DNA of 37,738 bases from an uncultured Isosphaeraceae bacterium (GCA_964609425.1 CAZSSV010000001.1:905-38642); one strand, 5' to 3'. Shown: positions 3,914 through 36,579, numbered from the stretch's first letter. Translations and numbers: made by a program. The notes: a model not told the origin generated them from the letters alone.

Positions 3914-5038
3914 CTACTTCTTCAGGAATGGTAGGGCGCACGTTTCGCCGTGGACCTCGGTTCGACCGAGGTCGACACAGACCGCGGTGCCCGGTTCGGC
4001 GGCGTCACGATGGACAAGTGCCATGGCGATTGATCGCTCCAGCGTCGGGCTGAAGCAGCCGCTGGTGACCGTTCCAATGTCGACACCGTCCTGCCGCACG
4101 GCCATGCCCTGGCGGGCGGCGCGGCGACCTTCCAGCAGCAGGCCGGTGAGCCGCCGCTCCGGGCCGCCGCCGGCGGCGATGCTCTGAAGGGCATCCTGCC
4201 CGATGAATCGAGGCGTGTCGTCCGACTCCCCTTTGTCGAGCTTGACGGCAAAGTTGAGACCCGCGGTCAGCGGATCGATGTCTTCCGTGATTTCGTGCCC
4301 GTAGAGGGCCATGCCAGCTTCGAGGCGGAGTGAGTCCCGGGCACCCAGACCACATGGCCTGACGGTCGTGTCGTCGGCGTCCACATTGCCCAGGAGCATT
4401 TTGACCATCTGTCCCGCGACCATTCTGGGAAGGATGACTTCGACGCCGTCTTCGCCGGTGTAGCCCGTACGGGAGACGAGGAACTTGGCGATCAAGATGG
4501 ACTTCTGTGTAAACCGGTAGCGTTTGAGCGTCGGGATCTCCCGGGAGAACTGCCCGATCAGTTCCATGACCTTCGGCCCCTGTACAGCCACCATGGCCGT
4601 GGACTCGGTCTCGTCGCGGAGCTTGAAGACCATGTCGGCTCGAACGTTGTCAATGTGCCCCAGAAGCTTCTCTCGATTCGCCGCGTTGCAGACCATGAGG
4701 TACTCAGACTCGCCGATGCAGTAGACGAGCACGTCGTCCTTGCATCCTCCCTGGTCGTTGCAGACGAGGCCATACCGAACCTGGCCGGGCTGCATGCCGC
4801 CGATCTGTCGCGTGCAGATGGAGTCCAGAAACGGCTGGGCATCGCGGCCGGAGAACCGGAGCCGCCCCATGTGGGACACATCGAACATGCCTCCACTGCG
4901 GCGCACCTGATGATGCTCTTCAATGATCGACCCGTAGTGCAGCGGCATGTCCCAGCCCGTGTAGTCGACGAGCTTGGCGCCATGATCGGCGTGAAATGCG
5001 TGAAAGGGCGTTTGCCGCAGTGGTGTCATCGTGGCCAT
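3914..5038 (-). CDS. gcvT: Glycine cleavage system aminomethyltransferase (T protein)
   Basis: MATMTPLRQTPFHAFHADHGAKLVDYTGWDMPLHYGSIIEEHHQVRRSGGMFDVSHMG... is a classic GcvT N-terminus. At 374 aa the size is typical. The track ORF 3914-5806 is an artefactual 5' extension into lpxD. Confidence 0.92.
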   Translation of the reverse strand: MATMTPLRQTPFHAFHADHGAKLVDYTGWDMPLHYGSIIEEHHQVRRSGGMFDVSHMGRLRFSGRDAQPFLDSICTRQIGGMQPGQVRYGLVCNDQGGCKDDVLVYCIGESEYLMVCNAANREKLLGHIDNVRADMVFKLRDETESTAMVAVQGPKVMELIGQFSREIPTLKRYRFTQKSILIAKFLVSRTGYTGEDGVEVILPRMVAGQMVKMLLGNVDADDTTVRPCGLGARDSLRLEAGMALYGHEITEDIDPLTAGLNFAVKLDKGESDDTPRFIGQDALQSIAAGGGPERRLTGLLLEGRRAARQGMAVRQDGVDIGTVTSGCFSPTLERSIAMALVHRDAAEPGTAVCVDLGRTEVHGETCALPFLKK

Positions 5039-5057
5039 TCCGGCATCGTATCGGAGA

Positions 5058-6104
5058 TCACTCCCGGGATGACTTGGCCGCGGCCCGCTCGAGTTTTTTG
5101 ACGCGGCGGAACAGCTCGGCCAGGTTGGTGCCGGCCAGCGCATTTCTCTTGGCCGTGTCGGCCGAGATCGCAGGCGCACCGCCGATGAGCGTTCCTGAGT
5201 CGATGTCGCTGACGATGCCCGACTGGGCCAGTGCCTGCACACAGTCACCGACCTCCAGGTGCCCGGCGACGCCGACTTGTCCACCCAGGACCACATGGTG
5301 GCCCAGCTTGGCCGATCCAGCGACACCGACCAGTGAAACGAGCAGGCAATGCGGGCCGATGGTCGTGCCGTGTCCGATCGAAATGAGGTCAGCAAACTTG
5401 GTGCCCTGACCGATGCGGGTCTCGCCCATGGCGGCCCGTTCGACGACGCAGTTTCCGCCCAGTTCCACGTCATCTTCGATGACGACAATGCCATGTTGGG
5501 GAATCTTGTGGTGCGCTCCGGCGTGCGTGGCATATCCGAAGCCATCATTGCCAATGACGGTGCCGGCGTGCAGCGTGACGCGATTGCCCAGGACGCAGTG
5601 TTCGTGCACGACGACGTTCGGGAAGAGCACGCAGTCGTCACCGATGGTGGCGTCTGGCCCGACCCAAACCCCCGGGTAGAGGTGGCAGCCTCGGCCGATC
5701 GCGGCACCCCGCTCGACGACGGCGAATGGATGGATACGGGTCTGCTCACCAATGACTGCCGTCTCGTGGACGACGGCTCGGCCGCTCCGCCCCGCGCCAT
5801 GGTCATCGATCGGTTCGGGGTGAATGCGGGTGCCCAGCAGCGCTATGACGGCATTTCGGAACGCGAAGTAGGGATCGTCACAGGTCAGGGTGGCCAGGCC
5901 CTCTGGGCAGTCGATGCCCGGGCTGATCAAAACAGCGCCCGCGGAGGTGGTTTCAAGATGGCTGCGATACCGGGCGTTTGAGAGAAACGTCAATTCGTCG
6001 CTGGAGGCCGATTCGATGCCAGCGCACCGCGTGATGGCGTGATCAGGGTCGCCATCAAGCGTGGCGCCGAGGTGGTCCGCGAGTTCTCCCAAGGTCATCG
6101 CCAT
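5058..6104 (-). CDS. lpxD: UDP-3-O-acylglucosamine N-acyltransferase, divergent paralog (LpxD-1)
   Basis: LpxD-type N-terminal domain (LGELADHLGATLDGDPDHAITRCAGIESASSDELTFLSN) followed by left-handed beta-helix hexapeptide repeats and GFGYA. The catalytic-His region reads ISIGHGTTIG. It lies 19 nt upstream of gcvT on the same strand. Confidence 0.88.
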   Translation of the reverse strand: MAMTLGELADHLGATLDGDPDHAITRCAGIESASSDELTFLSNARYRSHLETTSAGAVLISPGIDCPEGLATLTCDDPYFAFRNAVIALLGTRIHPEPIDDHGAGRSGRAVVHETAVIGEQTRIHPFAVVERGAAIGRGCHLYPGVWVGPDATIGDDCVLFPNVVVHEHCVLGNRVTLHAGTVIGNDGFGYATHAGAHHKIPQHGIVVIEDDVELGGNCVVERAAMGETRIGQGTKFADLISIGHGTTIGPHCLLVSLVGVAGSAKLGHHVVLGGQVGVAGHLEVGDCVQALAQSGIVSDIDSGTLIGGAPAISADTAKRNALAGTNLAELFRRVKKLERAAAKSSRE

Positions 6105-6197
6105 CGTGCCGCTCCTTGCTCGCTCGGCTGGCGCAGGGTACCTCCGGTCCCTCCCGGCGGCATCCCCAGGGGTGGCCCGGTATCCTCCGAGCCCCGC

Positions 6198-8555
6198 ATG
6201 GGCCGGATCACAACCATTCTGTCGGGTCTCATGGTGACGCTTGTCGTGACGGCGGCTGCGCGGGCCGCAGCACCCGATGCAGACTCGTTGCTTGACCGGC
6301 CGATCGGCTCTATTCAAGTCGAGGGCCTTGAGCGGGTTCAGGAGCAGAAGGTTCTCAACAACATCCGATCGCGGGTCGGCCAGCCCTACGACCCCGAGAC
6401 GGCCCAGGGGGACATCTCCAGGCTCACCCGGCTCGGTGACTTTGCGAGCATCGACATCGTTGCCGAACTCGGCCCCGACGGAACGGTGGACCTGGCGTAC
6501 TTCTTTCGAGAGGAGCGGCTGCTCGCGGCGGTCTCGGTTGTGGGCAACCGCCAACTGGCCGACGGGGCGTTGCTGGGTCCGACGGGTCTGCATCGCGGCT
6601 CTCCGAGGGACGACTTCCTCATCCAGCGCGGCATTCGCGAGATGGAAGAGGCGTACCACACCAAGGGCTACTACCTGGCCGAGGTGACGATCAACGATGC
6701 CGAGCTCGAGGAACACGACATTCTCATTTTCGAGGTCATAGAAGGGCCTCGTGTACGGATTCGCGCCATCGAGTTCGCTGGCGCCACGGCCTTCAGCGAT
6801 CGAAAGCTTGCTGCTGAGATTGAGACGACGACCTGGTTTCCGTTCCTTCGGCGTGGTGAGGTTGATCAAGACCAGTTGGCGGCCGATGTGTCGTCCCTGC
6901 ACAGGTTCTATCACGACCGCGGTTGGATTGACGTGCGAGTTGACAAGGAGATCGAGGTCAGCCCGAGTCAGCGGGAGGCCAAGGTTGTCTTCCTCGTCGA
7001 AGAGGGAAGGCGATACACCGTCGAGGAGATTCGGGTGACGGCCCCCGGTGGCGTCCCGCTTGAGGTGTTCTCGAGCGAGCAACTCGCCGCGATCATGAAC
7101 ATCAAGGTCGGTGACGTTTTTGGGCAGGACCTTGTAGACCGCTCGCGAAAGTCAATCGCGGACTCCTACGGCGTTCTCGGCTATCTCGACGCGCGTGTGG
7201 TCATCGTGCCCATCCGACGAGGCACGAGCACCGAACTCTCGCTGCTCGTCGAGGTCGATGAAGGGCAAGTCGCCAACGTCGGTCTTGTCAATATCACGGG
7301 CAATATCCTGACGAAGGACAAGATCATCCGCACGCAGATCGGGCTCATTCCAGGGCGGCGGTTTGATGCGCGGGAAGTCGAAGCCACCAAGGAACGGATC
7401 ATGGGCACCGGCCTGTTCGGTGACGCCAAGGTGTCGGTGCAACAGCCGAGCGAGGCGGACTCCTCGACGAGAGACGTCCTGGTCGAGATCAAGGAGAAGA
7501 ACACCGGTGCGATCAACTTCGGTGTCGGGTTCGGATCGGATTCCGGCGTGCTCGGAAACATCTCACTGACCCAGAACAATTTCGATCTCTTTGATGTTCC
7601 CGAGACCTTCGGCGAATTCATCCGAGGCCGGGCATTCCGTGGGGCTGGGCAGCGATTTGCGCTGAACTTTCAGCCAGGCACCGAGATCTTTGCCTACGAC
7701 GTGAGTCTGACGGAGCCGCAGATTCTCGGAACGCCATTCGCCCTGGGTGGGAGCGCCGGGTACTTTCGCCGGGCCTACGTGAACTACACGGAGGAGCGGA
7801 CCTCCGCGGGCCTTTCACTTGCCCGAAGGCTCGGTGATGTGTGGTACGGCTCACTCAGGCTGGACGCGGCCAGCGTGGAGCTCACCGACCTGAACCCATT
7901 CGAGCCTGTGGACGTCCTGGAGGACGCCGGTCCGGAGACCCTGGTCAGCCTCGGTCTGACGCTCACGCGCACAACGATCGACCGAATGACCCGTCCCACG
8001 CGTGGCAGCCGGACCCAGTTGTCGCTGGCCAATTGGGGCATGATCGGTGGGCAACGCAGCTTCAATCGAGTCTCGGTCGATTACACAACCTACTTTGCCC
8101 TCGATCGCGACTTCCTCGGCCGGGTCTCAACGCTGCGGGTGGATGGGCAGGTCGGCCAGCTCTTCGGCGGTGATGCGCCCACGTATGAGCGGTTCTATCT
8201 GGGTGGCCGTTCGCTGCGGGGCTTCCAGTTCCGTCAGGTGTCTCCCAAGGGCATCGACGCTGCCGGTAACGTGACGGATGTGCCGGTGGGAGGCACCTTC
8301 ATGGTGTTCCTGGGCACCCAATACCAGCGGCCTCTGGTTGGTGAAATGCTCGATGGTGTGGTGTTCATCGACTCTGGAACGGTGAATGACGATCCGGGCT
8401 TCGACCAGTATCGCGTTTCCGTAGGTATTGGCCTGCGGGTGTATATTCCCCAACTCGGCCCTACACCCCTGGCGTTTGACTTTGCGTTCCCGATGCTCAA
8501 GCAGGACGGGGACGAGACACAACTGTTCAGTTTCTCGGCCGACCTCCCGTTCTGA
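6198..8555 (+). CDS. bamA: Outer membrane protein assembly factor BamA (POTRA domains + Omp85 barrel)
   Basis: Signal peptide MGRITTILSGLMVTLVVTAAARAAAP. POTRA-like repeats (IQVEGLERVQEQKVLNNI..., IRAIEFAGATAFSDRKL..., VNITGNILTKDKIIR...). C-terminal barrel ending ...LFSFSADLPF. At 785 aa it sits in the classic bamA-skp-lpxD context. Confidence 0.93.
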   Translation: MGRITTILSGLMVTLVVTAAARAAAPDADSLLDRPIGSIQVEGLERVQEQKVLNNIRSRVGQPYDPETAQGDISRLTRLGDFASIDIVAELGPDGTVDLAYFFREERLLAAVSVVGNRQLADGALLGPTGLHRGSPRDDFLIQRGIREMEEAYHTKGYYLAEVTINDAELEEHDILIFEVIEGPRVRIRAIEFAGATAFSDRKLAAEIETTTWFPFLRRGEVDQDQLAADVSSLHRFYHDRGWIDVRVDKEIEVSPSQREAKVVFLVEEGRRYTVEEIRVTAPGGVPLEVFSSEQLAAIMNIKVGDVFGQDLVDRSRKSIADSYGVLGYLDARVVIVPIRRGTSTELSLLVEVDEGQVANVGLVNITGNILTKDKIIRTQIGLIPGRRFDAREVEATKERIMGTGLFGDAKVSVQQPSEADSSTRDVLVEIKEKNTGAINFGVGFGSDSGVLGNISLTQNNFDLFDVPETFGEFIRGRAFRGAGQRFALNFQPGTEIFAYDVSLTEPQILGTPFALGGSAGYFRRAYVNYTEERTSAGLSLARRLGDVWYGSLRLDAASVELTDLNPFEPVDVLEDAGPETLVSLGLTLTRTTIDRMTRPTRGSRTQLSLANWGMIGGQRSFNRVSVDYTTYFALDRDFLGRVSTLRVDGQVGQLFGGDAPTYERFYLGGRSLRGFQFRQVSPKGIDAAGNVTDVPVGGTFMVFLGTQYQRPLVGEMLDGVVFIDSGTVNDDPGFDQYRVSVGIGLRVYIPQLGPTPLAFDFAFPMLKQDGDETQLFSFSADLPF

Positions 8556-8583
8556 GTGGGGGAGCCCGAAGCGGAGGATCTCC

Positions 8584-9213
8584 ATGGCAATTCACACACG
8601 AGTGTCCCTGCCCGTTTTGCTCACAGCGGCCGTCGCGGCGATGTCGGTCGGCATGCTTCCTGGGTCAGCGGCCCAGCAGTCGGCGGTCAGCCCGGTAGCG
8701 GTGGTCAACCTGTCTCAGGTGATGGAAGGGCTCGCCGAGCGAGCGGACGCCGAGGCCGGCCTCCGAGCAAAGGCTCAATCGGTCGCCGCCGAAGCAGAGA
8801 CGATGCAGGCCGACCTTCGTACGCTGCAGGAAGAGTTGATGGCGATCACAGATCCCATCGAGCGGCTCGCGAAGGAGGAGCGAGTCGATGCGGACGTCAT
8901 TCAGTTCATGGCCTGGCAGGAACTGATGAAGCAGGAACTGGATGTCGAGCGTGCGCTGGCGCTCGAAAAACTGTATCGCGACATCATGAGTGCCGTCGCG
9001 GATCTCGCGACAACAGACGGCATCGATCTGGTTCTGGTTCACGATGGTGCTCGGGGCATCGAGACGAACCCCGCGCCAGAGGCCGGACCGCTGGCCACCC
9101 AGGTGCGTCAGCAGATTGCACAGCGACGCATCGCGTTTGCGTCGGACCGGATCGACCGCACCCGGGACGTCATCATTCGGATGAATGCCGACTACAAGAA
9201 TGAGACCCGCTGA
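8584..9213 (+). CDS. skp: OmpH/Skp-family periplasmic chaperone, paralog 1
   Basis: Signal peptide (MAIHTRVSLPVLLTAAVAAMSVGMLPGSAAQ), then a coiled-coil-rich approx 200-aa body. GGAGG lies upstream of the ATG. Position is directly after bamA. Confidence 0.72.
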   Translation: MAIHTRVSLPVLLTAAVAAMSVGMLPGSAAQQSAVSPVAVVNLSQVMEGLAERADAEAGLRAKAQSVAAEAETMQADLRTLQEELMAITDPIERLAKEERVDADVIQFMAWQELMKQELDVERALALEKLYRDIMSAVADLATTDGIDLVLVHDGARGIETNPAPEAGPLATQVRQQIAQRRIAFASDRIDRTRDVIIRMNADYKNETR

Positions 9214-9236
9214 GAGGCCGGGAGAGGACTGACACC

Positions 9237-9842
9237 ATGCAACGACATCTGATTCGACTGGTCGTACTTGTCGCGTTGTGCGTGACGCCGCTCATGGCGT
9301 GGCAGGCGGCCGCCAACCGTGCGGCTGTGACGCCCACGGTCGTCGGCACAATTGACCTGCCCAGGGTGCTGGAGTCGCTGGACGAGTGGGCGGCTGAGAT
9401 GCAGCGGGCCCAGGCGGCAGGTGAGGCCTTCCAGGCGGAACTCGCCCAGAAGCGGGATGATCTGGACGGCCTGGCGGCAGATATGGAAGACTTCGTCCTC
9501 GGGACGGACCAGTACGCCGCTGCCGAGCACGCGCTCAAGAAGGCTTCGATCGACCTACGGGCGTTCATGAGCTATGCGGACATGCGTGAGGCGAGGACCA
9601 AGCAAAGGGCCATTCTGCGGATCTACAACCATGTTCGGTCTGCAACGCAGGAACTCTCAGACCGGGACGGATACGGCATTGTGCTCATGGACGATTCAGC
9701 GATTCCCATCGCCGAGGACAGCTCCGACATCCTTGGCGATATCTCGTCACGCCGCGTGCTGTACGCCGCAGCGACACTCGACATCACGGAGCCGCTGATC
9801 GCCTTCATGAACGCGCAGTGGCAGGCGGCCCGCGGCCAGTGA
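9237..9842 (+). CDS. skp: OmpH/Skp-family periplasmic chaperone, paralog 2
   Basis: Signal peptide ([26 protein letters not shown]). Helical body of the same size and organisation as the preceding gene ([13 protein letters not shown]...ELAQKRDDL...). Located between skp-1 and lpxD. Confidence 0.68.
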
Positions 9843-9861
9843 TGCCTCGTCGCTACACGAC

Positions 9862-10887
9862 ATGTTGACCGCGGCCGACATCGCCAAACGCCTGGGCGGC
9901 GAGCTCGTCGGATCGGGCGAGCATTGTGTTGCTGGCTTCGCTGGACTCGACGAGGCCGCGGCTTCGGATCTGGTTTTCATCGCACATGCGAAGTGGGCCG
10001 ACCGCTGGGTGACCAGTCAGGCCGTCGTGGCGCTTGTGACGCGTGGCGTCGAAGTTCCCGGGCACGATCCGGACGCGAGAACATTGGTCGTTGTGGATGA
10101 CGCCGAAATCGGAATGATGCTGCTTCTCGACTCCGTTGCTGCCGAGCTTCGGCCAGGGCCGGCGCCCGGCGTGCATGCAGGGGCTCACATCGACGACACG
10201 GCGACCCTCGGCCAGGGCGCTCACGTCGCCGCCGGTGCGGTGGTCGCCGCCGGCGCGGTGGTCGGCGACGGAGCCGCCATCGGGGCGGGGGCGGTGGTGG
10301 AGAAGGGGGCCGTGGTGGGTGCCGGGGCCAGGCTGCACGCAGGTGCCGTGCTTGGCGAAGGCTGTTCCATCGGCGAGCGAAGCGTTCTGCATTACGGCGC
10401 GATGGTGGGCGGCGAGGGATTCGGCTTTCGGCCCGACCCGGATTCGGGCCTGCCCCGAAGGGTGCCGCACCTCGGAACCGTTGAAATCGGTGCCGATGTC
10501 GAGATCGGGGCCTCTTCCTGCGTCGACAGGGGCAAGTTTGGTCCGACCACCATCGGGGACGGTACCAAGATCGACAATCTCGTCCAGATCGCTCACAACG
10601 TCCAAATCGGTCGTGGGGTCATCATCGCCGGTCAGGCGGGCCTGGCCGGATCGGTCCAGGTGGGGGACGGGGCGGTTCTCGGGGCTCAAGTGGGGGTCGC
10701 GGAGCATGTCGAAATCGGCGCTGGGGCCAGAATCGCGGCGACCAGTGGCGTCATGCGCACGGTTCCCGCTGACGAGGATTGGGCAGGAACGCCCGCCCGC
10801 CCGGCACGCCAGACTTTGCGAGAGGTTGCGGCCCTCCGTAAACTGCCGGAACTGGTGGCCTCCATGGCGCGGCGGGAATCGTCCTGA
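9862..10887 (+). CDS. lpxD: UDP-3-O-acylglucosamine N-acyltransferase, canonical paralog (LpxD-2)
   Basis: LpxD N-domain, long hexapeptide run and GFGF. The catalytic-His block [13 protein letters not shown] is close to the E. coli DNQCQIAHNVVIG. Conserved lpxD-fabZ-lpxA order. Confidence 0.92.
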
Positions 10888-10913
10888 CGCGTCTGAGGTT
10901 TCTGGTTTCGCCC

Positions 10914-12275
10914 ATGGACGAGCCGCAGACCCAGCCTGTTGAATCCGAACGAGCGACCACCCGTCAGCGGACGCTGGCTCGCGAGGTGTCGGTGCGTGGC
11001 AAGGGGCTCATGCTCGGTCAGGATGCGGAGCTGCGACTCTGCCCGGCTCCCTCAGATCATGGGCTGGCATTTGAACGAGTCGACCTGGACCCGCCGGTGC
11101 GGATCCCAGTGACGATCGAGCATGCGCTGGAGCGGGATCGCAGGACCGCAATCGGCTCAGGCGATGCTGTGGTCGAGACGATCGAGCACTGCATGTCGGC
11201 GCTGAGAGGTGCCGGCATCGACAATGCCCTTCTGAAGATCGATGGGCCTGAAGTGCCGCTGGGCGACGGAAGTGCATCGGCATTCATGGCTGCCATCGCA
11301 GAAGCCGGCGTTGAGACGCAGGATCAGGCTCGCCACGTGATCCAGATCGAAGAGCCGATCGTCCTTCGAGAAGGTGACACCATGCTTGCGGTGTTCCCCT
11401 CAGGGAGTGATGAGTTTCGGGTCATGTACGAACTCGACTACGGCAAAGCTTCGTCTCGCATTCCCCGGCAGTCCTTCGCGTTCACCCTCGACGCGTCCTC
11501 CTATTCGGAGGAAGTCTCCGAGGCTCGAACGTACAGTCTTGAGGAAGAAGCAAGAGCGTTGCAGGACCAGGGGCTTTGCACGCATCTGTCACCCGCCGAC
11601 GTTTTGGTCATTGGCGACGACGGCCCCATCGAAAACACGTGGCGTTTCGACAATGAGCCAGTGCGGCACAAGGTGCTCGATCTGATTGGCGATCTGATGC
11701 TGGTCGGCGCACCAGTGGCGGGGCACTTCATCGGGACCAGATCCGGGCACGCCCTCAATCGCCGAATGTGCCGGGCGATCTGCGAGCAGATCGAGCGAAA
11801 GGAGCGAGCCGAGCGGCTCGAATCCGGACGCACGATGGATATTCGGGCCATCCAACAGATCATGCCGCACCGGTACCCCATGTTGCTGGTCGATCGCGTG
11901 GTCGAAGTTGAAGGTAATCAGCGGGCCATCGGCGTCAAGAATGTGACCATCAATGAGCCGTTTTTCACCGGGCACTATCCCGGGACACCGATCATGCCTG
12001 GCGTGTTGATCGTCGAAGCCATGGCTCAACTCGGGGGTCTGCTTCTGAGCCAGACGCTTGAGCACCACGGAAAGATCGCGGTTCTGCTCAGCTTGGACAG
12101 GGTCAAACTTCGGCATCCGGTGACGCCAGGGGATCAACTGATGCTCGAGGCCGAGACGATCCGCGCCAGCACGCGTACGGCCGCCATTCGATGCCGCGCG
12201 TACGTGGCCGATCGCGATGTCGCTGAGGCGCAGATTCGATTTATGATGGTCGATGCGGACCAGGCTCACGGATGA
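10914..12275 (+). CDS. lpxC/fabZ: Bifunctional UDP-3-O-acyl-GlcNAc deacetylase / 3-hydroxyacyl-ACP dehydratase (LpxC-FabZ fusion)
   Basis: The N-terminal approx 300 aa carry LpxC motifs (GLAFERVDL..., ETIEHCMSAL, HKVLDLIGDL, SGHALN). The C-terminal module from Met308 (ATG 11835) carries the FabZ signature (IMPHRYPMLLVDRV...EPFFTGHYPGTPIMPGVLIVEAMAQ). Confidence 0.93.
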   Translation: MDEPQTQPVESERATTRQRTLAREVSVRGKGLMLGQDAELRLCPAPSDHGLAFERVDLDPPVRIPVTIEHALERDRRTAIGSGDAVVETIEHCMSALRGAGIDNALLKIDGPEVPLGDGSASAFMAAIAEAGVETQDQARHVIQIEEPIVLREGDTMLAVFPSGSDEFRVMYELDYGKASSRIPRQSFAFTLDASSYSEEVSEARTYSLEEEARALQDQGLCTHLSPADVLVIGDDGPIENTWRFDNEPVRHKVLDLIGDLMLVGAPVAGHFIGTRSGHALNRRMCRAICEQIERKERAERLESGRTMDIRAIQQIMPHRYPMLLVDRVVEVEGNQRAIGVKNVTINEPFFTGHYPGTPIMPGVLIVEAMAQLGGLLLSQTLEHHGKIAVLLSLDRVKLRHPVTPGDQLMLEAETIRASTRTAAIRCRAYVADRDVAEAQIRFMMVDADQAHG

Positions 12276-12291
12276 GGAGTGTCGGTACACC

Positions 12292-13131
12292 ATGACCTCG
12301 GTTCACCCAACAGCGATCATCGACCCGAGTGCGGAGTTGGCCGACGATGTTCGTGTCGGTCCCTATTGCGTCATCGGGCCGGATGTCCAGATTGGCGGCG
12401 GGTCCGTACTCGACGCCCACGTGACGATTGGCATGCGGACTGTGCTCGGATCGAGAAACCACCTGCACTCACACTGCGCGGTTGGCGGCGATCCACAGGA
12501 CCGCAAGTACGCGGGAGAGCTGACTGACCTGCGAATCGGTGACGACAACGAGATTCGCGAGCATGTGACCATTCATCGCGGAACCGGAAACGGTGGAAGC
12601 GTCACCGACGTCGGGTCCGGAAACCTGCTGATGGTCGGGGCCCACGTGGCCCACGACTGCTCGGTGGGTGACGGCACCGTGATCGCCAATCAGGTGATGC
12701 TTGCAGGGCACGTCAGAGTTGAGGATGGTGCCTCAATCGGAGGCGGGGTTGGCGTTCATCACTTTGCAACCATCGGCCGCCTCTCGTTCGTGGGCGGACT
12801 CGCCAGAGTCTCGCGAGACGTGCCGCCCTTCATGATTGTGGAAGGCCACCCAGCCGAGGCGCGTGCGGTCAATGCCATCGGCATGTTGAGGAACGACTAC
12901 GCCCAGTCTGACATCGAGGCGATGAAGGAAGCGTTCCGCCGCGTGTATCGAGGTGCCTCCGTCGTCGCCGAAGCCATCGCCGAGCTTCGCGCCGGGTTCT
13001 CTGGTGTCGAAGCGGTCGGACACCTGTGCGACTCGATCGAAGCATCCACCATGGGCACCCACGGCCGCGCGCGAGAAGCGATGCGTACTGACGACAAGTG
13101 GACGGCGGCGGACGCCGCCGAAGCAACCTAG
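12292..13131 (+). CDS. lpxA: Acyl-ACP--UDP-N-acetylglucosamine O-acyltransferase
   Basis: MTSVHPTAIIDPSAELADDVRVGPYCVIG..., the catalytic block GAHVAHDCSVGD, and the VPPFMIVEGHPA segment. Start trimmed to ATG 12292, downstream of the lpxC/fabZ stop at 12275. Confidence 0.92.
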   Translation: MTSVHPTAIIDPSAELADDVRVGPYCVIGPDVQIGGGSVLDAHVTIGMRTVLGSRNHLHSHCAVGGDPQDRKYAGELTDLRIGDDNEIREHVTIHRGTGNGGSVTDVGSGNLLMVGAHVAHDCSVGDGTVIANQVMLAGHVRVEDGASIGGGVGVHHFATIGRLSFVGGLARVSRDVPPFMIVEGHPAEARAVNAIGMLRNDYAQSDIEAMKEAFRRVYRGASVVAEAIAELRAGFSGVEAVGHLCDSIEASTMGTHGRAREAMRTDDKWTAADAAEAT

Positions 13132-13487: not shown

Positions 13488-13922
13488 TCATGGTTGCCCC
13501 ATGGCGGCCGCTCCGGAAAACGAGGCTGCGGGGCGATAGCCCCACTCTGCCATGGTTTCCGCCAGCGTGCTGGTGTCGAGGTACCGCAGCGACCCTCCGA
13601 CGTAGATGGTGGTCCCGGAGGGCAGGCCTGCGGGGAGCACCACCGGCAGATCCGCCACGCGGTCGAACCCCGGTGACAGCACCAGCCCTGCGGCGTGTCG
13701 GCCGTGCCAAGCCCCTCGGCCCGGCGCCTGAGCCGTGTAGTCGTACTCGATGAGCTTGATCGAGCGCTCATTCGGATTGGTAATGCGCACCTGTACCACG
13801 CCAGCGGTGGCGTCGGCAGTTGCTTGGGTGATCCGGCCGGTATCCAGCACCTGGACGGAGGGCGGCGAAACGCATCCGGCCACAAGGGCGAGCGATGCTG
13901 CTGCGGCGAGTCGCGTGTGCAT
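13488..13922 (-). CDS. Lipoprotein, LEA_2 (LEA14/NDR1-like) fold suspected
   Basis: The lipobox is MHTRLAAAASLALVAG|C. The beta-rich body with VVQVRITNPNERSIKLIEYDY resembles bacterial LEA type-2 lipoproteins. Confidence 0.65.
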   Translation of the reverse strand: MHTRLAAAASLALVAGCVSPPSVQVLDTGRITQATADATAGVVQVRITNPNERSIKLIEYDYTAQAPGRGAWHGRHAAGLVLSPGFDRVADLPVVLPAGLPSGTTIYVGGSLRYLDTSTLAETMAEWGYRPAASFSGAAAMGQP

Positions 13923-14081
13923 GAGAGCACGATATCAGGGTGGCTCGCCCCGTTGCCTCTCTCGCAACCCCCCCAGCCGGTATGGCCTGCCCCGCTCGGG
14001 CTGGATCGCGAGGAATCGGCTCAGGACACATGGGAGACGAGTCGATCCCGACTTCGACCCGCACACCCCTTGGAGTTCCGG

Positions 14082-15137
14082 ATGCAACTCGACGCGATTC
14101 TCCAGTCTGCAGCAAACCTCGGCGCCAGCGATGTTCATCTGGTCCCCGGCCATGTTCCGATGGTGCGGGTAGATACGGTTATGCGGAGCCTGGATCTGCC
14201 GGTCCTGGTCAACGCCGATTTGGACGGATTTGTCTGTGAGATCACCTCGAAGTCCCAGCGGGAGCGGCTGGCGGCCGAGCAGGACCTGGATCTGTCCTAC
14301 GCCGTGAGCGCACTTGGCCGCTTTCGCGTCAACATCCACCGGCAGCGGACCGGTCTGGCCATGGCCATGCGGGCGATTCGGTCGACCATCCCACCGCTGG
14401 AGGATCTCAACCTTCCGGATGTCGTTCAGCGGTTCGCCATGCTTCCACGCGGGCTTGTGCTGGTCACTGGCGACACCGGGTCGGGCAAGTCCACCACGCT
14501 GGCCGCCATCATTCAGGCGATCAATGCTCGAGAACGCAAGCACATCATCACGCTCGAGGATCCGATTGAGTACACATTCCAGTCGCGGCAGTGCCTGATT
14601 GAACAGCGAGAACTCGGCGCGGACTTGCCGTCGTTCGCGTCCGGGCTCAAGCATGCCCTTCGCCAGGACCCGGACATCATTCTCGTCGGCGAAATGCGGG
14701 ACCTGGAGACGACGGCCCTGGCCATGAGTGCTGCGGAAACTGGACACCTTGTCCTCTCCACCCTTCACACCGTCAGCGCGGCTCAGACGGTCGAGCGCAT
14801 CATCGACATGTATCCGGCCAACCAGCAGAACCAGATTCGGTCGATGCTCGGCGACACGCTGCAGGCCGTCCTCTCACAGTCGTTGTTCGCAAGAGCCGAC
14901 GGTGACGGCATGGTGCCGGCGGTGGAGATCCTGCTGTGTACACCGGCCGTACGCAATCTCATTCGTGAGAATCGCACATTCGAGATTCCCAATGTGATCG
15001 AGACGAGCCGAGGTCTGGGCATGACCACGCTCGACTCATCCATCTCGCAGTTGTATTTCAATGGACTCATTTCCGGGGAGGATGCAGTCGCCCGAGCCGT
15101 GTATCCGGATGCCATGGAGCAGGCCATCGCGGCCTGA
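14082..15137 (+). CDS. pilT: PilT/PilU-family hexameric secretion ATPase (351 aa)
   Basis: Walker A GDTGSGKST, Asp box ITLEDPIEY, Walker B DPDIILVGEMRD, His box TGHLVLSTLHT, and a PilT-type AVRNLIRENR motif. Short N-domain with no GspE_N/PilB extension. GGAG lies 8 nt upstream of the ATG. Confidence 0.9.
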   Translation: MQLDAILQSAANLGASDVHLVPGHVPMVRVDTVMRSLDLPVLVNADLDGFVCEITSKSQRERLAAEQDLDLSYAVSALGRFRVNIHRQRTGLAMAMRAIRSTIPPLEDLNLPDVVQRFAMLPRGLVLVTGDTGSGKSTTLAAIIQAINARERKHIITLEDPIEYTFQSRQCLIEQRELGADLPSFASGLKHALRQDPDIILVGEMRDLETTALAMSAAETGHLVLSTLHTVSAAQTVERIIDMYPANQQNQIRSMLGDTLQAVLSQSLFARADGDGMVPAVEILLCTPAVRNLIRENRTFEIPNVIETSRGLGMTTLDSSISQLYFNGLISGEDAVARAVYPDAMEQAIAA

Positions 15138-15143
15138 TCGCGC

Positions 15144-16370
15144 ATGCCCAACTACCTCTGGGAAGTTCGGACGCCGGGCGGACGCACCGAGTCGGGTCGC
15201 ATGTCGGCCGAGACCGCGGGTGCCGCAGCGTTGGTGCTTCGCCGGCAAGGGCACCACGTGCTCAAACTGGTGCCGCTTGCCGATCGCCGTTTCGAATGGA
15301 AGCGGATTGTCGAGATTCTGAATGCCGGAACCGGACCTTCACAGAAGGAGGTTCTGGACTTCACGGTTCAACTGGCGGTGATGGTTCGTGCGGGCATCAA
15401 TCTTCGCCAGGCCCTGGACGGCATCGGTGAGCAGACGAAGAACGCCAAGTTCCGCCGAATCATCCTGCAAATCCGCGCCGACGTCGAAGCAGGCCGCTCG
15501 TTTTCCGAGGCCATCTCCAAGTATCCAAAACAGTTCAACGCTCTGTATGTCAATATGGTCAAAGCGTCCGAGATGTCCGGGTCCTTCGCACAGATGCTTG
15601 ACCGCATCGCGTCCTTCATCACGCAACAACTTGAGACCAGAAAGATGGTCATCGGGGCGAGCATCTACCCGGGAATCATCGCCACCATGGCGACTGGTGT
15701 GACGGTCTTTCTGTTGACCTTTGTCCTGCCGAGATTCGCCGGAGTGTTTGCAGGCAAGGAAGACGTCCTTCCCGGGCCCACCAAGATGCTGATGGGGCTC
15801 TCGGCGTGGATGGTCGGCAACTGGCAGGTGCTGGTCGGTGCCGTGATCGCGTGCATCATCGCAGTGCTGCTCGCACTCCGCACCGGCCCGGGCCAGTTGG
15901 CGCTCGACCGGGTCAAACTCCTTGCGCCGCTCTTCCGTGGAATGTTTCGGGCGTTGTACGTCAGTCGGTCGCTTCAGACGATGGGGGAGTTGCTCAACGC
16001 GGGCGTCCCCGTGCTCGACGCCGTGGGTGTGACGGCGGACATCTCTGGGAATCGTCTGTACCGTGATTTGTGGTGCCGTGTCCAGGCGTCGGTTCGCGAT
16101 GGCAACAAGCTCAATGACGAATTGGAGAAGTCCAGGCTACTTCCAGGATCAGTCGTGCAAATGGTCGCCGCTGGCGAGGAGTCGGGCCGCCTTGGTGAGG
16201 TGCTGGAGGAAGTTGCGGAGTTCTATCATCGTGTTCTTCGCGATGCGATCAAGGCGATGACGAGCATGATCGAACCTTTGCTCATCGTGGTCATGGGCTC
16301 GATTGTTGGTTTCATCGCCATGGCGATCATCTTGCCGATCTTCAAGATGAGTTCGTTGGTGTCCGGATGA
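15144..16370 (+). CDS. pilC: Type II secretion / type IV pilus platform protein (GspF/PilC family)
   Basis: 408 aa with two T2SSF-type repeats (FTVQLAVMVRAGINLRQAL... and SLQTMGELLNAGVPVLDAV...) and three TM segments. Starts 6 nt after the pilT stop. Confidence 0.9.
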   Translation: MPNYLWEVRTPGGRTESGRMSAETAGAAALVLRRQGHHVLKLVPLADRRFEWKRIVEILNAGTGPSQKEVLDFTVQLAVMVRAGINLRQALDGIGEQTKNAKFRRIILQIRADVEAGRSFSEAISKYPKQFNALYVNMVKASEMSGSFAQMLDRIASFITQQLETRKMVIGASIYPGIIATMATGVTVFLLTFVLPRFAGVFAGKEDVLPGPTKMLMGLSAWMVGNWQVLVGAVIACIIAVLLALRTGPGQLALDRVKLLAPLFRGMFRALYVSRSLQTMGELLNAGVPVLDAVGVTADISGNRLYRDLWCRVQASVRDGNKLNDELEKSRLLPGSVVQMVAAGEESGRLGEVLEEVAEFYHRVLRDAIKAMTSMIEPLLIVVMGSIVGFIAMAIILPIFKMSSLVSG

Positions 16371-16906
16371 TGCGGCCAGGTCGAGTCAGGTCGAAGGGGC
16401 GTCGGGGCTTCACGCTCGTGGAGACGGGGCTCGCCATCGTCATCGTGGCGACGGGCATGCTCGCGATGCTCGCGGCGCACGAGGCGTTTGTGCAGCAGAA
16501 TGAGTGGGGCGAGCGTGCGTCACAGGCTGCGCGGCTCGGTGGCGAGATTCGCGAGCGAAGCATGACCCTTGCGCTGGCGGACCCGGTTACGGGCAGCACG
16601 TTCTGGGGCGCCGAGTCCGGCGAGGTGACGCTGGCCGACTGGGACGATATGGACGACTACGACGGGCTCGATGTGTCGGGATGGGGTGGTGACGGCCCGA
16701 TCGACGCTTCAGGAAGTGTCATTCCGGGCATGCAGGGCTGGCGGCAGGTCGTCGAGGTTCAGTCGGTGGACCCGACCGATCTCGCGACGCCGGTTGCTGA
16801 CGGAACTTCAGAGGCGGTTCGCGTTTCGGTGGACGTGTACTGGCAGGAGAGCGTCGGAGACCCCGGTGACCTGGTCACCACGGTGACATGGGTGCACGTG
16901 CAATGA
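16367..16906 (+). CDS. Prepilin-type N-terminal cleavage/methylation domain pseudopilin (179 aa)
   Basis: Leader MMRPGRVRSKGRRG|FTLVETGLAIVIVATGMLAML has the G|F cleavage site and Glu5. The ATG overlaps the pilC stop (ATGA). Confidence 0.8.
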   Translation: MMRPGRVRSKGRRGFTLVETGLAIVIVATGMLAMLAAHEAFVQQNEWGERASQAARLGGEIRERSMTLALADPVTGSTFWGAESGEVTLADWDDMDDYDGLDVSGWGGDGPIDASGSVIPGMQGWRQVVEVQSVDPTDLATPVADGTSEAVRVSVDVYWQESVGDPGDLVTTVTWVHVQ

Positions 16907-19251
16907 GATGCCAGCACACACGTCGATCGCATCACCTCGGTGTCTCCTCGGTGATGGCGATGATCTTCCTGGCGCTGGTCGCGTCGCTGACCGCGGTCAT
17001 GGCCATCGTGTCCGAGGGAAACGTCCGCAGCGCCGATTCGGCCATCAGAGTGTCGAGAAGTCTGAGCGCCGCTGAGAGTGGTCTCAAGGCGGCGATGTGG
17101 CGCCTGCGGCGAGAGTCGGGACGGTTTGTCGTTGAGGCGGGCGATCTGGATGGCGGTTTCGGTGATCGATTGTGGCGTGGCACCTGGGTGGGGGCCGACG
17201 GCGTCGTGACGGTTGCCGACCCGGACGGATACACGGTGCCTGCGCCGAGCGGTGTGGGCTTGATGCATGCGGTGTATGACGCCCATCTGAACCACGATCA
17301 GCACGCAGATGTGCTGGTCGACGGCGTGGTCGTTGAGGCGGCGATCGACCCGGTCGGTGGAGTAGTCACCTCACAGGGAATTCCGCTGGACGGGACCGTA
17401 GGCGGAGCGTGGTTCCAACTCAAGTACGAGATGCTTGCGGGCGGCAGCGGTGTCCGCGTCACCAGCAGAGGCATTGATCAGGACGTGCAGCGGCTCGTCC
17501 AGATGGACTTCCTTCTCGAGAAGAAGATTGAGTATGCGCTGCTTGGGCAGAGCCGCATCATGGTGGGCAAGAACGTTCTCGTGGACGGCCCGATCGGGGC
17601 CTTGTACGGCACCGTCTCCGGGGAACTCGACCCCGACAACGGCGATCCCCTCGTCCTTCGCAGTGACTTCTACGATCTGGATTCCGTGACGCTCGATCCG
17701 CTTCTGGACACGCTACACGGCCTGGTCGCTACGGATGATGCGGACGGAGACGGTCGGCTGCGACCGGACCATCCTCAGGAGGGGGCGTCGCTGGCGGCCT
17801 ACCCCACGCTTCAGGACCATGACGAGGATCAGTACATCGACGACTTTGACCTTTTCCTGGGAGTTTTCGACGCAGACACGGACGACATGGTGGTGTTCGA
17901 TCCGGCGCTTGCGCAAGCGGCCGGGTGGGGCGTGATGGCGGACGAATTCGACGGCGACGACGATCTGGCCACCTTGCTGGACACGGCAGCATCGGACCGA
18001 AACGCAGATGGGCAGATCGATGCCTTGGACACGGCGATGGGTTGGAACGATGGAATCCTCGACGTTCGAGATCGGTACGCAAAGGTGCGCGGGCACCTCA
18101 ACTTCGCCACGGACGCGGCGTCGTGGGAGAGTGCCCGCAGCGCATCCTGGCAGTCCCGAGCAGAAGCGGTTGTGCGGCCGAGTCAGGCCAAGCCGCCGGC
18201 CACGTTTTCGGTCGGGGCGCCCTGGCTGCTCGGCCTGACCAGTGACATGTTCCTCAACTCGACCACCTGGTACGAGACACAGGCCAATGCCGGCAGCTCG
18301 TTTGCGTCGCAAGTCGCGGCCAATGGTGGCTGGTCCGGTGAGACGACACCGCCCGAATCAGTGCCCTGGGGCTCCGACGGGGCCTACGACCTCTTTGACC
18401 GGCCGGTGTACCGCAACATGATCTTCGGTGACATGAAGATTCCAATGGGCACCAACGCCCTGTTCGTTGATTGCTGGTTCGTGGGGGTGGCCTGGATCGA
18501 GACGACCGAGGACTGCACCGACGTCAACTGGAACTACGCCGGAAGCCGCGAGATGCAGGACGGCGCGCCTGCACTGCGCTTTCCAGATCTGACGGCAACG
18601 TCCGGAGGTACGGAGTACACCGACACAAGCGTGGCTTCGAACAACCTTCGGTTCGACGGGTGCACCTTTCTCGGAACGCTCGGCGGCGACCGGCCGCTCG
18701 AATTCACGCATTGGCGTAACAAGGTTCAGCTGACGGGGGCGACGAGGTTCTTCGTCGATCCAGATGACCCCGATCTCCTGGCCGAACCGGATGCGCCAGC
18801 CCTGCAAACCTTGCTCCTGGCCATGCCGGAGCCGACGCTCGAGCAACTCGCCCGCACGAGCATGTTGTTGCCGGGATGGTCGGTGGATGTCGGCAACTTT
18901 GACAGCGATACCAGTACGAGCGTCAAGCTCAATGGGACGATCGTGACGGGGCTCATCGACATTCGAGGTGCTGCTGAGATTCATGGAACACTGATGACGA
19001 CCTTCCGTCCGGAGGAGGGTGTGGGGCCGCTGTTCTACGGCGGGACGCCGGATGCCTTCAATACGACGCTCGGGTACTTCGGCTCAGAGGATGGTGATCA
19101 GGAAGGCGTGGACGTTGACGACCCCGGCTTCGGCGGGTTCGGGAGCATCACGCTCAGGTATGACCCGGAGGCGAAGCTTCCTGACGGCATTCCGTGGCCA
19201 CTGCTTGCGACGCCGGAGGCGCCGACGTGGTACGAGGGGGGCGAGTGGTGA
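16903..19251 (+). CDS. Large GspK/PilX-like pseudopilin-associated protein (782 aa) with Asp-rich Ca-binding-like loops
   Basis: The N-terminus HHLGVSSVMAMIFLALVASLTAVMAIV resembles the non-cleaved GspK/PilX_N hydrophobic helix and has no Glu5. DDADGDGRLRPD and DRNADGQIDALD loops are present. Start chosen at ATG 16903, overlapping the upstream stop (ATGA); the track start at 16888 is also possible. Confidence 0.7.
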   Translation: MRCQHTRRSHHLGVSSVMAMIFLALVASLTAVMAIVSEGNVRSADSAIRVSRSLSAAESGLKAAMWRLRRESGRFVVEAGDLDGGFGDRLWRGTWVGADGVVTVADPDGYTVPAPSGVGLMHAVYDAHLNHDQHADVLVDGVVVEAAIDPVGGVVTSQGIPLDGTVGGAWFQLKYEMLAGGSGVRVTSRGIDQDVQRLVQMDFLLEKKIEYALLGQSRIMVGKNVLVDGPIGALYGTVSGELDPDNGDPLVLRSDFYDLDSVTLDPLLDTLHGLVATDDADGDGRLRPDHPQEGASLAAYPTLQDHDEDQYIDDFDLFLGVFDADTDDMVVFDPALAQAAGWGVMADEFDGDDDLATLLDTAASDRNADGQIDALDTAMGWNDGILDVRDRYAKVRGHLNFATDAASWESARSASWQSRAEAVVRPSQAKPPATFSVGAPWLLGLTSDMFLNSTTWYETQANAGSSFASQVAANGGWSGETTPPESVPWGSDGAYDLFDRPVYRNMIFGDMKIPMGTNALFVDCWFVGVAWIETTEDCTDVNWNYAGSREMQDGAPALRFPDLTATSGGTEYTDTSVASNNLRFDGCTFLGTLGGDRPLEFTHWRNKVQLTGATRFFVDPDDPDLLAEPDAPALQTLLLAMPEPTLEQLARTSMLLPGWSVDVGNFDSDTSTSVKLNGTIVTGLIDIRGAAEIHGTLMTTFRPEEGVGPLFYGGTPDAFNTTLGYFGSEDGDQEGVDVDDPGFGGFGSITLRYDPEAKLPDGIPWPLLATPEAPTWYEGGEW

Positions 19252-19808
19252 AGCGCCGCCGAGGTTTCTCGCTGGTCGAGGTACTGATCGCGCTTGCGAT
19301 CACTGTGGTGCTGATGATCGCCACCATGCTTGCGCTGCGGGCAAGTTTCGAGTCCTATCGCCGCTCAGCTGCGCGCGTCTCGTCCAATGTGTCCGGCCGA
19401 CTGGTGGTTGAGCGGGTGCAGATGATGATCCGTGGGGGGATCGACTTCGGCCCGGTTCCGGCGTCGCCCACTGAGAGCGTGGTGGAGTCGAACGAGTTGA
19501 GCATCCAATCGGCCGACGGAACCTGGACGACACTCCGCTGGGACGAGCCGACCGAGACGCTGCGCTGGGAGCAGGGATCGGACAGTTGGCCCCTGATCGA
19601 AGGGGCGAGCCAACTGGTCGGCGGTGGTGGAGACCCAGTCTCGCCGTTCAGGATGCAGTTTCGAGACGGACGCTGGCTGACCCATGCCACCATCGATCTG
19701 GTCATCGATGGTCAGGGCGTGAGCACCACAGAGCTGGACCTCGTGGAGCTGCCCGAGATGCGGTTTGTGGGCTCCGCGATGCCTCGCCGCGTCGCGTGGG
19801 GTGAGTGA
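19245..19808 (+). CDS. Prepilin-type N-terminal cleavage/methylation domain pseudopilin (approx 187 aa)
   Basis: V(V)KRRRG|FSLVEVLIALAITVVLMIATML. GTG starts at 19245 or 19248 overlap the upstream TGA (19249-19251). The part of the track ORF upstream of this overlaps the previous gene. Confidence 0.78.
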   Translation: MVKRRRGFSLVEVLIALAITVVLMIATMLALRASFESYRRSAARVSSNVSGRLVVERVQMMIRGGIDFGPVPASPTESVVESNELSIQSADGTWTTLRWDEPTETLRWEQGSDSWPLIEGASQLVGGGGDPVSPFRMQFRDGRWLTHATIDLVIDGQGVSTTELDLVELPEMRFVGSAMPRRVAWGE

Positions 19809-35446: not shown

Positions 35447-35574
35447 CTGTCTCCTCCAATCCAACATTCGATCTCTCCGGGTACCCACCGTACCTTGCTC
35501 AGGCGGCAGATCAAAGAGAAAGGCCGAGCGACGGGGGGAATCGATGATGGGGTGCCTCAGCCGGCGTCTCCAGT

Positions 35575-36579
35575 TCACTTCGGACCCACCGGGGTGGCGT
35601 CCGGGTCATCCTCGCCGCCGATCAACCCAATGCCCACAGAGCAGGCAAACCCGATGACCACCAACGCCATGGCGGAGGCCCATTGCCCGCCCGTCGGCGT
35701 GAAGCCCTCGGTTGGCCAATGCTCTGGTTTGATGGTGGCGACGGTCGTCTCGGTGACGATCTGCCCGCGGACGACCTCGCCCACTTCCGGTGCGCGTGCA
35801 GCCTTGAATGGCCACAGTCCCAGGACCGCGCCGAGCAGCAGCCCGAGCAGGACACCGAGTGTGGCCTTCCGCGCGTGCTCCAGCGCCCACTTGACCGCAT
35901 TTGAGATCACAATGACACCGATGATGGCGCCAATTGCAACAGGCACAATGACGGCCATCGGCTCTGCAAAGCTTCCGCCATCCTGCGCGGCGGCTTTCAC
36001 ACCTTCGACCGCTCCGAGAACGATGAGGTACTCGCCGAGTATGAGCAGCACGTAACTACCGGAAAGCCCAGGCAGGACCATCGCGGCGCCGGCCGCGAGC
36101 CCGGCGATCAGGTGGAGCCACCACCCACCGCCCGTAGTTTCGGCGCTTCCACCCGACGATTGTGCGATGAACAAAAGGACCATGAACGCCACACCGAAAC
36201 CAGCACCGATCAGGGCCGCAGGTGTGATCGGTCTGACCAGCGACCAGAGAAGAGGAACCCCGCCGAGGGTCAGCCCGAGGAACAGGCTGTACATGACCCA
36301 CCGGTGCTCGTGGACGAGTTCCTTGACGACTCCCGCTCCGAGCAAGATCGCTGCACCAGCGCCAGCAACAATGACGGCCAGGGTCACGATGGCGTCGAGA
36401 GACCAACGGCATGTCGTCACTCGGGCGACAGCGGCCACGAATCGTCGATAGACGCCCGCGGCAAGCAGCATGGTGCCACCGCTGATCCCCGGGACGAGAT
36501 TGGCGAGTCCCATCAGGACGCCGCCGAGTCCGAAGCGAACGAGCAGTAACGGATTGGTGATTCGTGGACCGTCCGACAT
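35575..36579 (-). CDS. DUF368-family polytopic membrane protein (334 aa)
   Basis: LANLVPGISGGTMLL and MVLPGLSGSYVLLILG are the duplicated DUF368 signature. About 8 TM segments. Start at MSDGPRIT (ATG 36579); the longer track ORF is Arg/Pro-rich upstream. Confidence 0.8.
   Translation of the reverse strand: MSDGPRITNPLLLVRFGLGGVLMGLANLVPGISGGTMLLAAGVYRRFVAAVARVTTCRWSLDAIVTLAVIVAGAGAAILLGAGVVKELVHEHRWVMYSLFLGLTLGGVPLLWSLVRPITPAALIGAGFGVAFMVLLFIAQSSGGSAETTGGGWWLHLIAGLAAGAAMVLPGLSGSYVLLILGEYLIVLGAVEGVKAAAQDGGSFAEPMAVIVPVAIGAIIGVIVISNAVKWALEHARKATLGVLLGLLLGAVLGLWPFKAARAPEVGEVVRGQIVTETTVATIKPEHWPTEGFTPTGGQWASAMALVVIGFACSVGIGLIGGEDDPDATPVGPK

Follow-up and report, generated by a model that had tools for sequence, protein, structure and literature searches.

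A five-gene operon with a PilT ATPase and a PilC platform

We analyzed a stretch of 37,738 nucleotides from an uncultured Isosphaeraceae bacterium (GCA_964609425.1, CAZSSV010000001.1:905-38642; this whole stretch is called the window below) that contains, at 14082-19808 on the plus strand, five open reading frames (ORFs) encoding a PilT ATPase, a platform protein of the PilC/GspF family, a prepilin (g3), a 782-aa protein (g4) and a second prepilin (g5). These five genes, referred to as the block, are listed in Table 1. A sequence-only reading had described them as co-directional and joined by a 6-nt gap and three 4-nt overlaps, and the ORFs and junctions agree: the pilT stop codon (15135-15137) is followed by the pilC start codon at 15144, and the overlaps are ATGA for pilC/g3 (16367-16370), ATGA for g3/g4 (16903-16906) and GTGA for g4/g5 (19248-19251). 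The start of g4 is ambiguous by 5 codons (ATG 16888 or ATG 16903).

Table 1. Genes of the block, with positions counted from the first nucleotide of the window.
Gene	Product	Position	Strand	Evidence
pilT	351-aa PilT-family ATPase, predicted retraction motor	14082..15137	+	TIGR01420, 441.7 bits
pilC	408-aa inner-membrane platform protein, PilC/GspF family	15144..16370	+	Pfam T2SSF, twice
g3	179-aa minor pilin, prepilin-type, probably GspI/PilV-like	16367..16906	+	motif RRG/FTLVE
g4	782-aa GspK/ComZ-like putative tip pilin	16903..19251 (alternative start 16888)	+	AlphaFold2 model, ComZ fold match
g5	186-aa minor pilin, prepilin-type, possibly GspJ/PilW-like, GTG start	19248..19808	+	motif RRG/FSLVE

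The ATPase frame is open back to 13695, and three observations favor the 351-aa gene that starts at 14082: PilT family profiles begin only at residue 132 of the longer frame, a GGAG ribosome-binding site (14072-14075) lies 6 nt 5' of the ATG, and a lipoprotein-like minus-strand ORF is found at 13488-13922. The upstream-extended ORF of 480 aa was rejected (its extension has no homology and overlaps the minus-strand gene).

The sequence-only reading had also reported that the window is devoid of an extension ATPase, a secretin, PilMNOP/GspCLM, an obvious major pilin and a prepilin peptidase. We reached the same result: Pfam scans of the remaining window ORFs gave no PilB/GspE, secretin, PilMNOP or prepilin peptidase, and a six-frame regex scan of the window gave no prepilin motifs other than those of g3 and g5.

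The ATPase belongs to the canonical PilT family

According to the NCBIfam models, the ATPase scores 441.7 bits on TIGR01420 (PilT/PilU; cutoff 319.1), as compared to 147.5 bits for GspE and 135.4 bits for PilB. The TIGR01420 profile covers residues 3-341 of the 351-aa protein, which has neither an MshEN/N1 domain nor a zinc module. Compared with proteins of known structure, it matches Pseudomonas aeruginosa PilT (3jvu) over its full length with 322 bits, followed by PilU (9n32, 243 bits), GspE (about 115 bits) and PilB (about 100 bits). All expected motifs are present, including Walker A (GDTGSGKST), the Asp box (EDPIEY), Walker B (ILVGEMRD) and the His box (LSTLHT), and the protein contains AVRNLIRENR, a motif of the AIRNLIRE type that is missing from the PilU sequences of our set. 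The profile score, motifs and profile coverage thus confirm the earlier description of a PilT-type ATPase without the PilB N-domain or zinc module.

We built a neighbour-joining tree from 131 PilT, PilU and PilB sequences of the fetched loci. One clade comprises the window PilT together with about 24 orthologs encoded in PilB-less blocks; it is sister to the other Phycisphaerae PilTs, i.e., those that adjoin a PilB. The joint Phycisphaerae clade is nested within the canonical PilTs at a large distance from PilU and PilB and without a long stem. The window ATPase thus does not fall among PilB/GspE, a placement that would have spoken against the sequence-only reading. The second position of Walker A (motif residues 130-138) is usually Pro in PilT and PilB and Ala in PilU; it is Asp in all PilTs of PilB-less blocks (25/25), and P, H, E or Q in the sister Phycisphaerae PilTs. 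Judged by its sequence, the window ATPase is an ordinary, vertically inherited PilT, and nothing suggests a changed function; its retraction activity is predicted from family identity.

The platform and the two small prepilins

The assignment of the second gene as a GspF/PilC platform is supported by two T2SSF stretches (195.5 bits in Pfam). On NCBIfam models the protein matches GspF (314 bits) and PilC (304/286 bits) over its full length, with all scores below the equivalog cutoffs. It is 51% identical to the PilC of three operons with the order pilB-pilT-pilC (L085, L086 and L026, described below).

The small proteins g3 and g5 both start with class III signals, RRG/FTLVETGLAIVIV and RRG/FSLVEVLIALAIT, respectively (the slash marks the predicted cleavage site). 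On the Pfam N_methyl model (cutoff 21.2 bits), g3 scores 17.2 bits, below the cutoff, and g5 scores 31.6 bits, above it; g5 is also above the cutoff of TIGR02532 (22.1 bits; cutoff 16.3). Weak N-terminal matches to PilV were found for g3, and its ortholog in L085 has weak matches to PilV and to XpsI/GspI; the L085 ortholog of g5 has a weak N-terminal match to GspJ. Profile searches of PDB sequences with g3 and g5 returned pilin helices only, and a single-sequence AlphaFold2 (AF2) model of g3 was unusable (pLDDT 49.5). From these matches g3 is probably GspI/PilV-like and g5 possibly GspJ/PilW-like.

The large protein g4 resembles a GspK-type pilin with a beta-solenoid

The N-terminus of g4 reads HHLG/VSSVMAMIFLALV and the family consensus is RRG/VASVLAMMFL, so that Gly-1 is present and Glu+5 is not, as in GspK. 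The window protein has no match in Pfam or NCBIfam, PilX_N and T2SS_GspK included. Its orthologs in sister lineages match PilX_N (20.1 bits; cutoff 25.5) and GspK (25.6 bits; cutoff 130) weakly.

Using 63 homologs, we obtained an AF2 model of g4 with pLDDT 89.8 and pTM 0.85. The model consists of a single 58-residue N-terminal helix (residues 15-72), a beta-rich pilin head, a helical insert (about residues 264-473) and a beta-solenoid. Its only significant PDB match by Foldseek is Thermus ComZ (two chains of 6qvi; E-values 6e-5 and 1.6e-4, probabilities 0.97 and 0.82); all other matches have E-values of 0.7 or more, with weak matches to the solenoids of ice-binding proteins coming next. Together, the signal motifs of g3 and g5 and the ComZ-like fold of g4 substantiate the earlier view of two pseudopilins (G/FTLVE and G/FSLVE) accompanied by a 782-aa GspK-like protein.

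Homologs of g4 fall into about 120 clusters, all from metagenome-assembled genomes of Phycisphaerae/Planctomycetota; all are annotated as 'hypothetical' and none has a Pfam domain. The g4 profile aligns colinearly with the large protein of canonical pilus operons (139.8 bits for L086 and 79.5 bits for L085). Taken together, g3, g4 and g5 look like a priming/tip complex of the GspI-J-K/PilV-W-X type with an enlarged head.

Two further observations were made on this protein family. The helical insert of g4 (about residues 245-475) contains invariant Asp-rich loops (D279/D281/D283 and D360/D365/D376/D390), and an insert of about 240 residues is specific to Phycisphaerales, the shorter orthologs of the full operons being without it. 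A profile search of PDB sequences gave weak, non-significant EF-hand-like matches for the insert, which may bind calcium. In L086, the large pilin of the full operon is separated from its last pilin by two tandem 453-aa g4-like paralogs (16190-18940), which suggests diversification of tip proteins.

The block is shared by Phycisphaerales and matches the distal half of full pilus operons

The same five genes in the same order were found in about 20 species representatives of Phycisphaerales and in several metagenome contigs, with differing flanks, a recurrence well beyond what chance would give. In these relatives PilT and PilC are followed by a pilin (about 190-260 aa), a large protein (750-1000 aa) and a second pilin (about 200 aa). 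In none of the about 20 Phycisphaerales species did pilB, pilM-P or pilQ occur within 10 kb of the block, apart from partial exceptions in L006, L009 and L011.

Other Phycisphaerae encode the corresponding genes as part of canonical type IVa pilus (T4aP) operons. L085 and L086 both read pilM-pilN-pilO-(pilP-like)-pilB-pilT-pilC-pilin-large protein-pilin, where PilB has the domains MshEN and T2SSE. L026 contains a secretin and a TPR gene followed, after further genes, by pilMNOP-pilB-pilT-pilC-pilin and a PilX_N protein, at which point an insertion sequence element follows. L027 contains pilMNOP-pilB-pilT, and four metagenome loci (L097, L099, L100 and L117) contain pilB-pilT-pilC-g3. The PilTs of these slightly more distant Phycisphaerae are 55-58% identical to the window PilT, with 56-58% in the gene-by-gene comparison with canonical operons. 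Along its entire length g3 shares about 30% identity with the pilin encoded after pilC in these operons, and g5 is 31-36% identical to their last pilin over the N-terminal ~65-70 residues (E-values of about 1e-8 to 1e-9). By these comparisons all five genes are orthologous to genes of canonical operons, and because the orthology holds gene by gene and in the same order in the sister Phycisphaerae operons, the window block and the distal half of a standard T4aP operon are homologous.

The block is also under strong purifying selection, as judged from sequence identities between two genomes: PilT (75%) and PilC (69%) of the block are more conserved than the housekeeping protein PGM (54%) in the same pair, in which PilB2 and PilC2 (the ATPase and platform of the separate cluster described in the next section) are 64% and 37% identical, respectively.

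Several genes were found next to the block in some loci. A very large PQQ_2 beta-propeller protein of 1050-1506 aa is repeatedly encoded divergently upstream of it (L001, 1679-6199, minus strand; L006, 5278-8430, minus strand; L094, 1323-5612, minus strand) and is absent from the window. In L009 (1-8871), a T2SS-like operon (type II secretion system) is divergent from the block and encodes a 1534-aa protein, a dockerin protein, a GspH-like pilin, a GspE-like ATPase and a GspF; L011 (1-8667) has the large protein, the dockerin protein, the ATPase and the GspF in common with L009, and no GspH-like match was found there. A GspD-type secretin lies 6.6 kb upstream of the block in L006 (461-3310). 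We considered the GspE-like ATPase of L009/L011 as the missing PilB and rejected it (it has its own GspF and adjoins the block in two loci only).

PilB-type ATPases are encoded elsewhere in two block-bearing genomes

In GCA_964203785.1, the block (L001) is found at 2.83 Mb and a cluster with a PilB-like protein (P0393) at 1.49 Mb of the same 3,849,293-bp contig. This second cluster (L090), 1.33 Mb from the block, reads pilM-N-O-P-secretin-TPR-HisKA-RR-HD-STAS-pilB-pilC2 and is called System A here. GCA_022566535.1 has this cluster too (L093), on a 310,739-bp contig and some 26 kb away from the block (L094); synteny between the L094 flanks and the window extends from the block to the VTT genes. 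The System A PilB (PilB2) has the domains MshEN and T2SSE and is 46-47% identical to full-operon PilBs; PilN, PilO and PilP of System A were assigned by position, with weak Pfam matches for PilN and PilO in L092 and L093 only. A PilB-type ATPase, an alignment complex and a secretin are thus encoded in block-bearing genomes (two genomes). We note that System A has built-in signaling genes (histidine kinase, response regulator, HD and STAS), which are unusual (L090, 1-13000; L093, 1-13000).

Two further assemblies (loci L091 and L095) contain detached pilM-N-O-P-pilB operons of the full-operon type with no pilT after pilB, and it is operons of this kind that one would expect as partners of a pilT block that is itself detached. 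In a metagenome scan using the L091 PilB, neither close relatives nor a locus joining a detached pilMNOP-pilB to the block turned up, and in a search using the L026 PilB, none of the matches listed (all of at least 63% identity) is on a block-bearing contig. Many proteins of about 1000 aa that head 50%-identity clusters (P0241-P0256) match PilB in two stretches; these could be PilB-PilT fusions or merged gene calls.

Interpretation of the block and competing explanations

We consider it probable that the block represents a 'distal' operon detached from the other type IVa pilus genes of marine Phycisphaerales, encoding the retraction motor, the platform and a priming/tip complex, and that its PilB-less look reflects an operon split in one order of Planctomycetota and not a machine run by PilT only. 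PilB, PilMNOP, the secretin, the major pilin and the prepilin peptidase would then be encoded elsewhere in the genome. The prepilin peptidase would cut g3 and g5 after Gly, and g4 would be left uncleaved or be cleaved in the manner of GspK; a g3-g5-g4 complex would nucleate on PilC; PilB would turn PilC, and major pilin would be added beneath the complex, so that the g4 solenoid would come to lie at the pilus tip as a ligand-binding head. PilT would then take the place of PilB on PilC and extract subunits, and the fibre would retract, pulling in the cell or the bound ligand. We infer the tip location, the ligand binding, the PilB partner and all of the dynamics. The location of pilB, pilMNOP and the secretin away from the block agrees with the published finding that the genes of T4aP are usually spread over multiple loci (PMC6668835).

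A number of observations weigh against this interpretation. The window, which extends 14 kb upstream and 18 kb downstream of the block, contains no pilB. The PilB of System A is followed by a platform of its own, PilC2, which is 27-33% identical to the block PilC and to full-operon PilCs and is no closer to them than are PilCs from other phyla. In a further neighbour-joining tree the System A PilB falls with PilB-PilC-type loci, as the sister group of the clade containing the full-operon PilBs, so that it may be part of a separate pilus system. No genome was seen with both the block and a pilMNOP-pilB operon of the L091/L095 type. Global TM-scores between g4 and ComZ are low (0.17-0.27), i.e., the match is local or by domain and not global, and the GspI/GspJ assignments of g3/g5 come from weak N-terminal matches (below cutoffs) and gene position.

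The sequence-only reading had proposed an undescribed minimal system in which PilT is the sole motor. In such a self-sufficient machine PilT would drive either the assembly or both the assembly and the retraction of a short pseudopilus made of tip pilins only. It is true that the block is PilB-less and tightly coupled in about 20 species, that purifying selection on it is strong, and that a clade-specific change from Pro to Asp in Walker A is seen in all block PilTs. Bifunctional motors are known in Tad pili (e.g. CpaF). PilT has also been reported to promote the extension of MSHA pili (PMC9815625). We nevertheless regard a PilT-only machine as very improbable: the protein is an ordinary PilT (it matches P. 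aeruginosa PilT with 322 bits, retains AIRNLIRE and shows no branch acceleration), sister PilTs already vary at the Walker A position (P/H/E/Q), the orthologous PilT adjoins PilB in sister lineages, and PilB-type ATPases are found in the same genomes. The block alone could not cross the outer membrane, either, because it lacks a secretin and an alignment complex. The proposal is accordingly not upheld by the ordinary PilT, the sister operons with PilB and the PilB of two block-bearing genomes. Its companion suggestion, a module that presents a tip complex or an adhesin, fits one part of the operon. The sequence-only reading had named as a refuting outcome that the block would prove to be part of a canonical locus; in the comparative sense the sister operons bear this out for a type IV pilus locus, which is not shown for the DNA just outside the window. 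In the literature, we found neither a described PilT-PilC-only system nor a type IV pilus inventory of Phycisphaerae.

More plausible than a PilT-only machine, yet still unlikely, is a hybrid in which the ancestral pilMNOP-pilB was lost and the block works with PilB2 and PilC2 of System A, extension proceeding through PilB2/PilC2 and retraction and tip priming through PilT and the block PilC, or else with the block PilC as the main platform and PilC2 specialized. The two gene sets are complementary (System A is without an adjacent PilT or tip-pilin set, the block without an extension ATPase, alignment complex and secretin), they are 26 kb apart in GCA_022566535.1, and the secretin and TPR proteins of System A are the best matches of those in the full cluster of L026 (36% and 24%, respectively). 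In the same genome pair PilC2 is fast-evolving (37%) as compared to the conserved block PilC (69%). PilB2, however, clusters with self-contained PilB-PilC loci, its co-occurrence with the block is seen in two genomes only, and detached pilMNOP-pilB operons of the ancestral type exist that could be the real partners. We know of no type IV pilus with two platform paralogs in one machine. A single machine with two platforms, one coupled to extension and the other to retraction and the tip, would be a novelty that we equally doubt, as would be its extreme form, in which PilT and its own platform handle a tip-only filament without PilB.

The least credible of the explanations is a T2SS-like pseudopilus module, in which GspF and a GspI/J/K-like tip serve secretion together with nearby GspD/GspE/GspF/GspH-like genes. 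The best NCBIfam match of the platform is indeed GspF (314 bits), the tip proteins resemble GspI/J/K, and the block is adjoined by the T2SS-like operon in L009/L011 and has the GspD-type secretin 6.6 kb upstream in L006. But the platform scores equally as PilC and stays below the GspF cutoff, the neighboring operon comes with an ATPase and a platform of its own and adjoins the block in some genomes only, and block orthologs lie in pilM-N-O-P-pilB-pilT-pilC operons. T2SS, moreover, have no PilT (PMC6668835).

Genomic context of the block in the window

The window has a GC content of 61-72% and its gene content is that of a planctomycete. A cluster with bamA-skp-skp-lpxD-lpxC/fabZ-lpxA is found 5' of the block (6039-13131), with two small minus-strand ORFs in between, and the genes 3' of the block encode PTPS, pgm, NUDIX, pdxJ, phoU, UDP-glucose pyrophosphorylase and two VTT-domain proteins. 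A promoter/terminator scan of the GC-rich window DNA was uninformative.

Other observations in the window include an LpxC-FabZ fusion (10914-12275) inside the outer-membrane/lipid A cluster directly upstream of the pilus block, and a pair of minus-strand ORFs at 32110-33804 and 33830-35578. One of this pair encodes a 564-aa protein with collagen triple-helix repeats, whose C-terminal domain resembles the minor capsid protein gp53 of phage XM1 (weak match), and an M12/reprolysin-like metallopeptidase adjoins it. The GCV_T protein (3914-5806, minus strand) has an unannotated N-terminal extension of about 265 residues, which may be an over-extended ORF call in GC-rich DNA.

Implications and comparison with known systems

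Read as a detached distal operon, the block no longer looks like an exception to the rule that a PilT-family ATPase serves as retraction motor in company with an assembly motor of the PilB type. The giant ComZ/GspK-like putative tip pilins of Phycisphaerae emerge as a well-conserved, previously unannotated family. With a solenoid head in the confident g4 model and Asp-rich loops that may bind calcium, they are candidate adhesins or ligand receptors of planctomycetes that are abundant in the marine plankton. Lineages with full and with split operons provide a clear pair for studying T4aP operon fragmentation, and the finding raises the question of why two very different platform paralogs are retained in block-bearing genomes.

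T4aP clusters with the order pilB-pilT-pilC are known from Myxococcus, cyanobacteria and Geobacter, and we saw this order in loci of Phycisphaerae, Cellulomonas, Acidimicrobiales and Lachnospirales. As in the block, pilT and pilC are adjacent and predicted to be co-transcribed in such clusters, and minor pilins follow; unlike them, the Phycisphaerales operon begins at pilT, and pilB and pilMNOP are not within 10 kb (about 20 species).

The prepilins of the block resemble the GspI-GspJ-GspK set of T2SS and the PilV-PilW-PilX set of T4aP in comprising two small prepilins and a larger protein with Gly-1 and without Glu5, and g4 shares with GspK an inserted helical domain. They differ from these sets in that the family cutoffs are not reached, in that the block has no equivalent of GspH/FimU or PilE, and in the size of g4, which is 2-3 times that of GspK/PilX and has a solenoid in addition. 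The Verru_Chthon cassette of Verrucomicrobia (TIGR02598, TIGR02600) is likewise a prepilin-like cassette with a very large member, from the Planctomycetes-Verrucomicrobia-Chlamydiae (PVC) superphylum. Scores of 19.9 bits for g5 and 18.5 bits for the L086 ortholog of g4 (cutoffs 51.4 and 332.3, respectively) come from the N-terminal helix only and are far below the cutoffs, and we rejected membership of the block in this cassette.

The closest structural counterpart of g4 is ComZ of Thermus thermophilus, which was described as a GspK-like pilin domain into which a solenoid resembling those of ice-binding proteins is inserted; together with PilA2 it has been proposed, on steric grounds, to occupy the tip of the pilus (PMC6561018). 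Like the ComZ/PilA2 competence-pilus tip, g4 combines a hydrophobic N-terminal helix, a GspK-type domain and a beta-solenoid, with small minor pilins encoded next to it; the two proteins differ in sequence (7-9% identity) and in length (g4 is about 230 residues longer), and the Asp-rich helical insert is found in g4 only.

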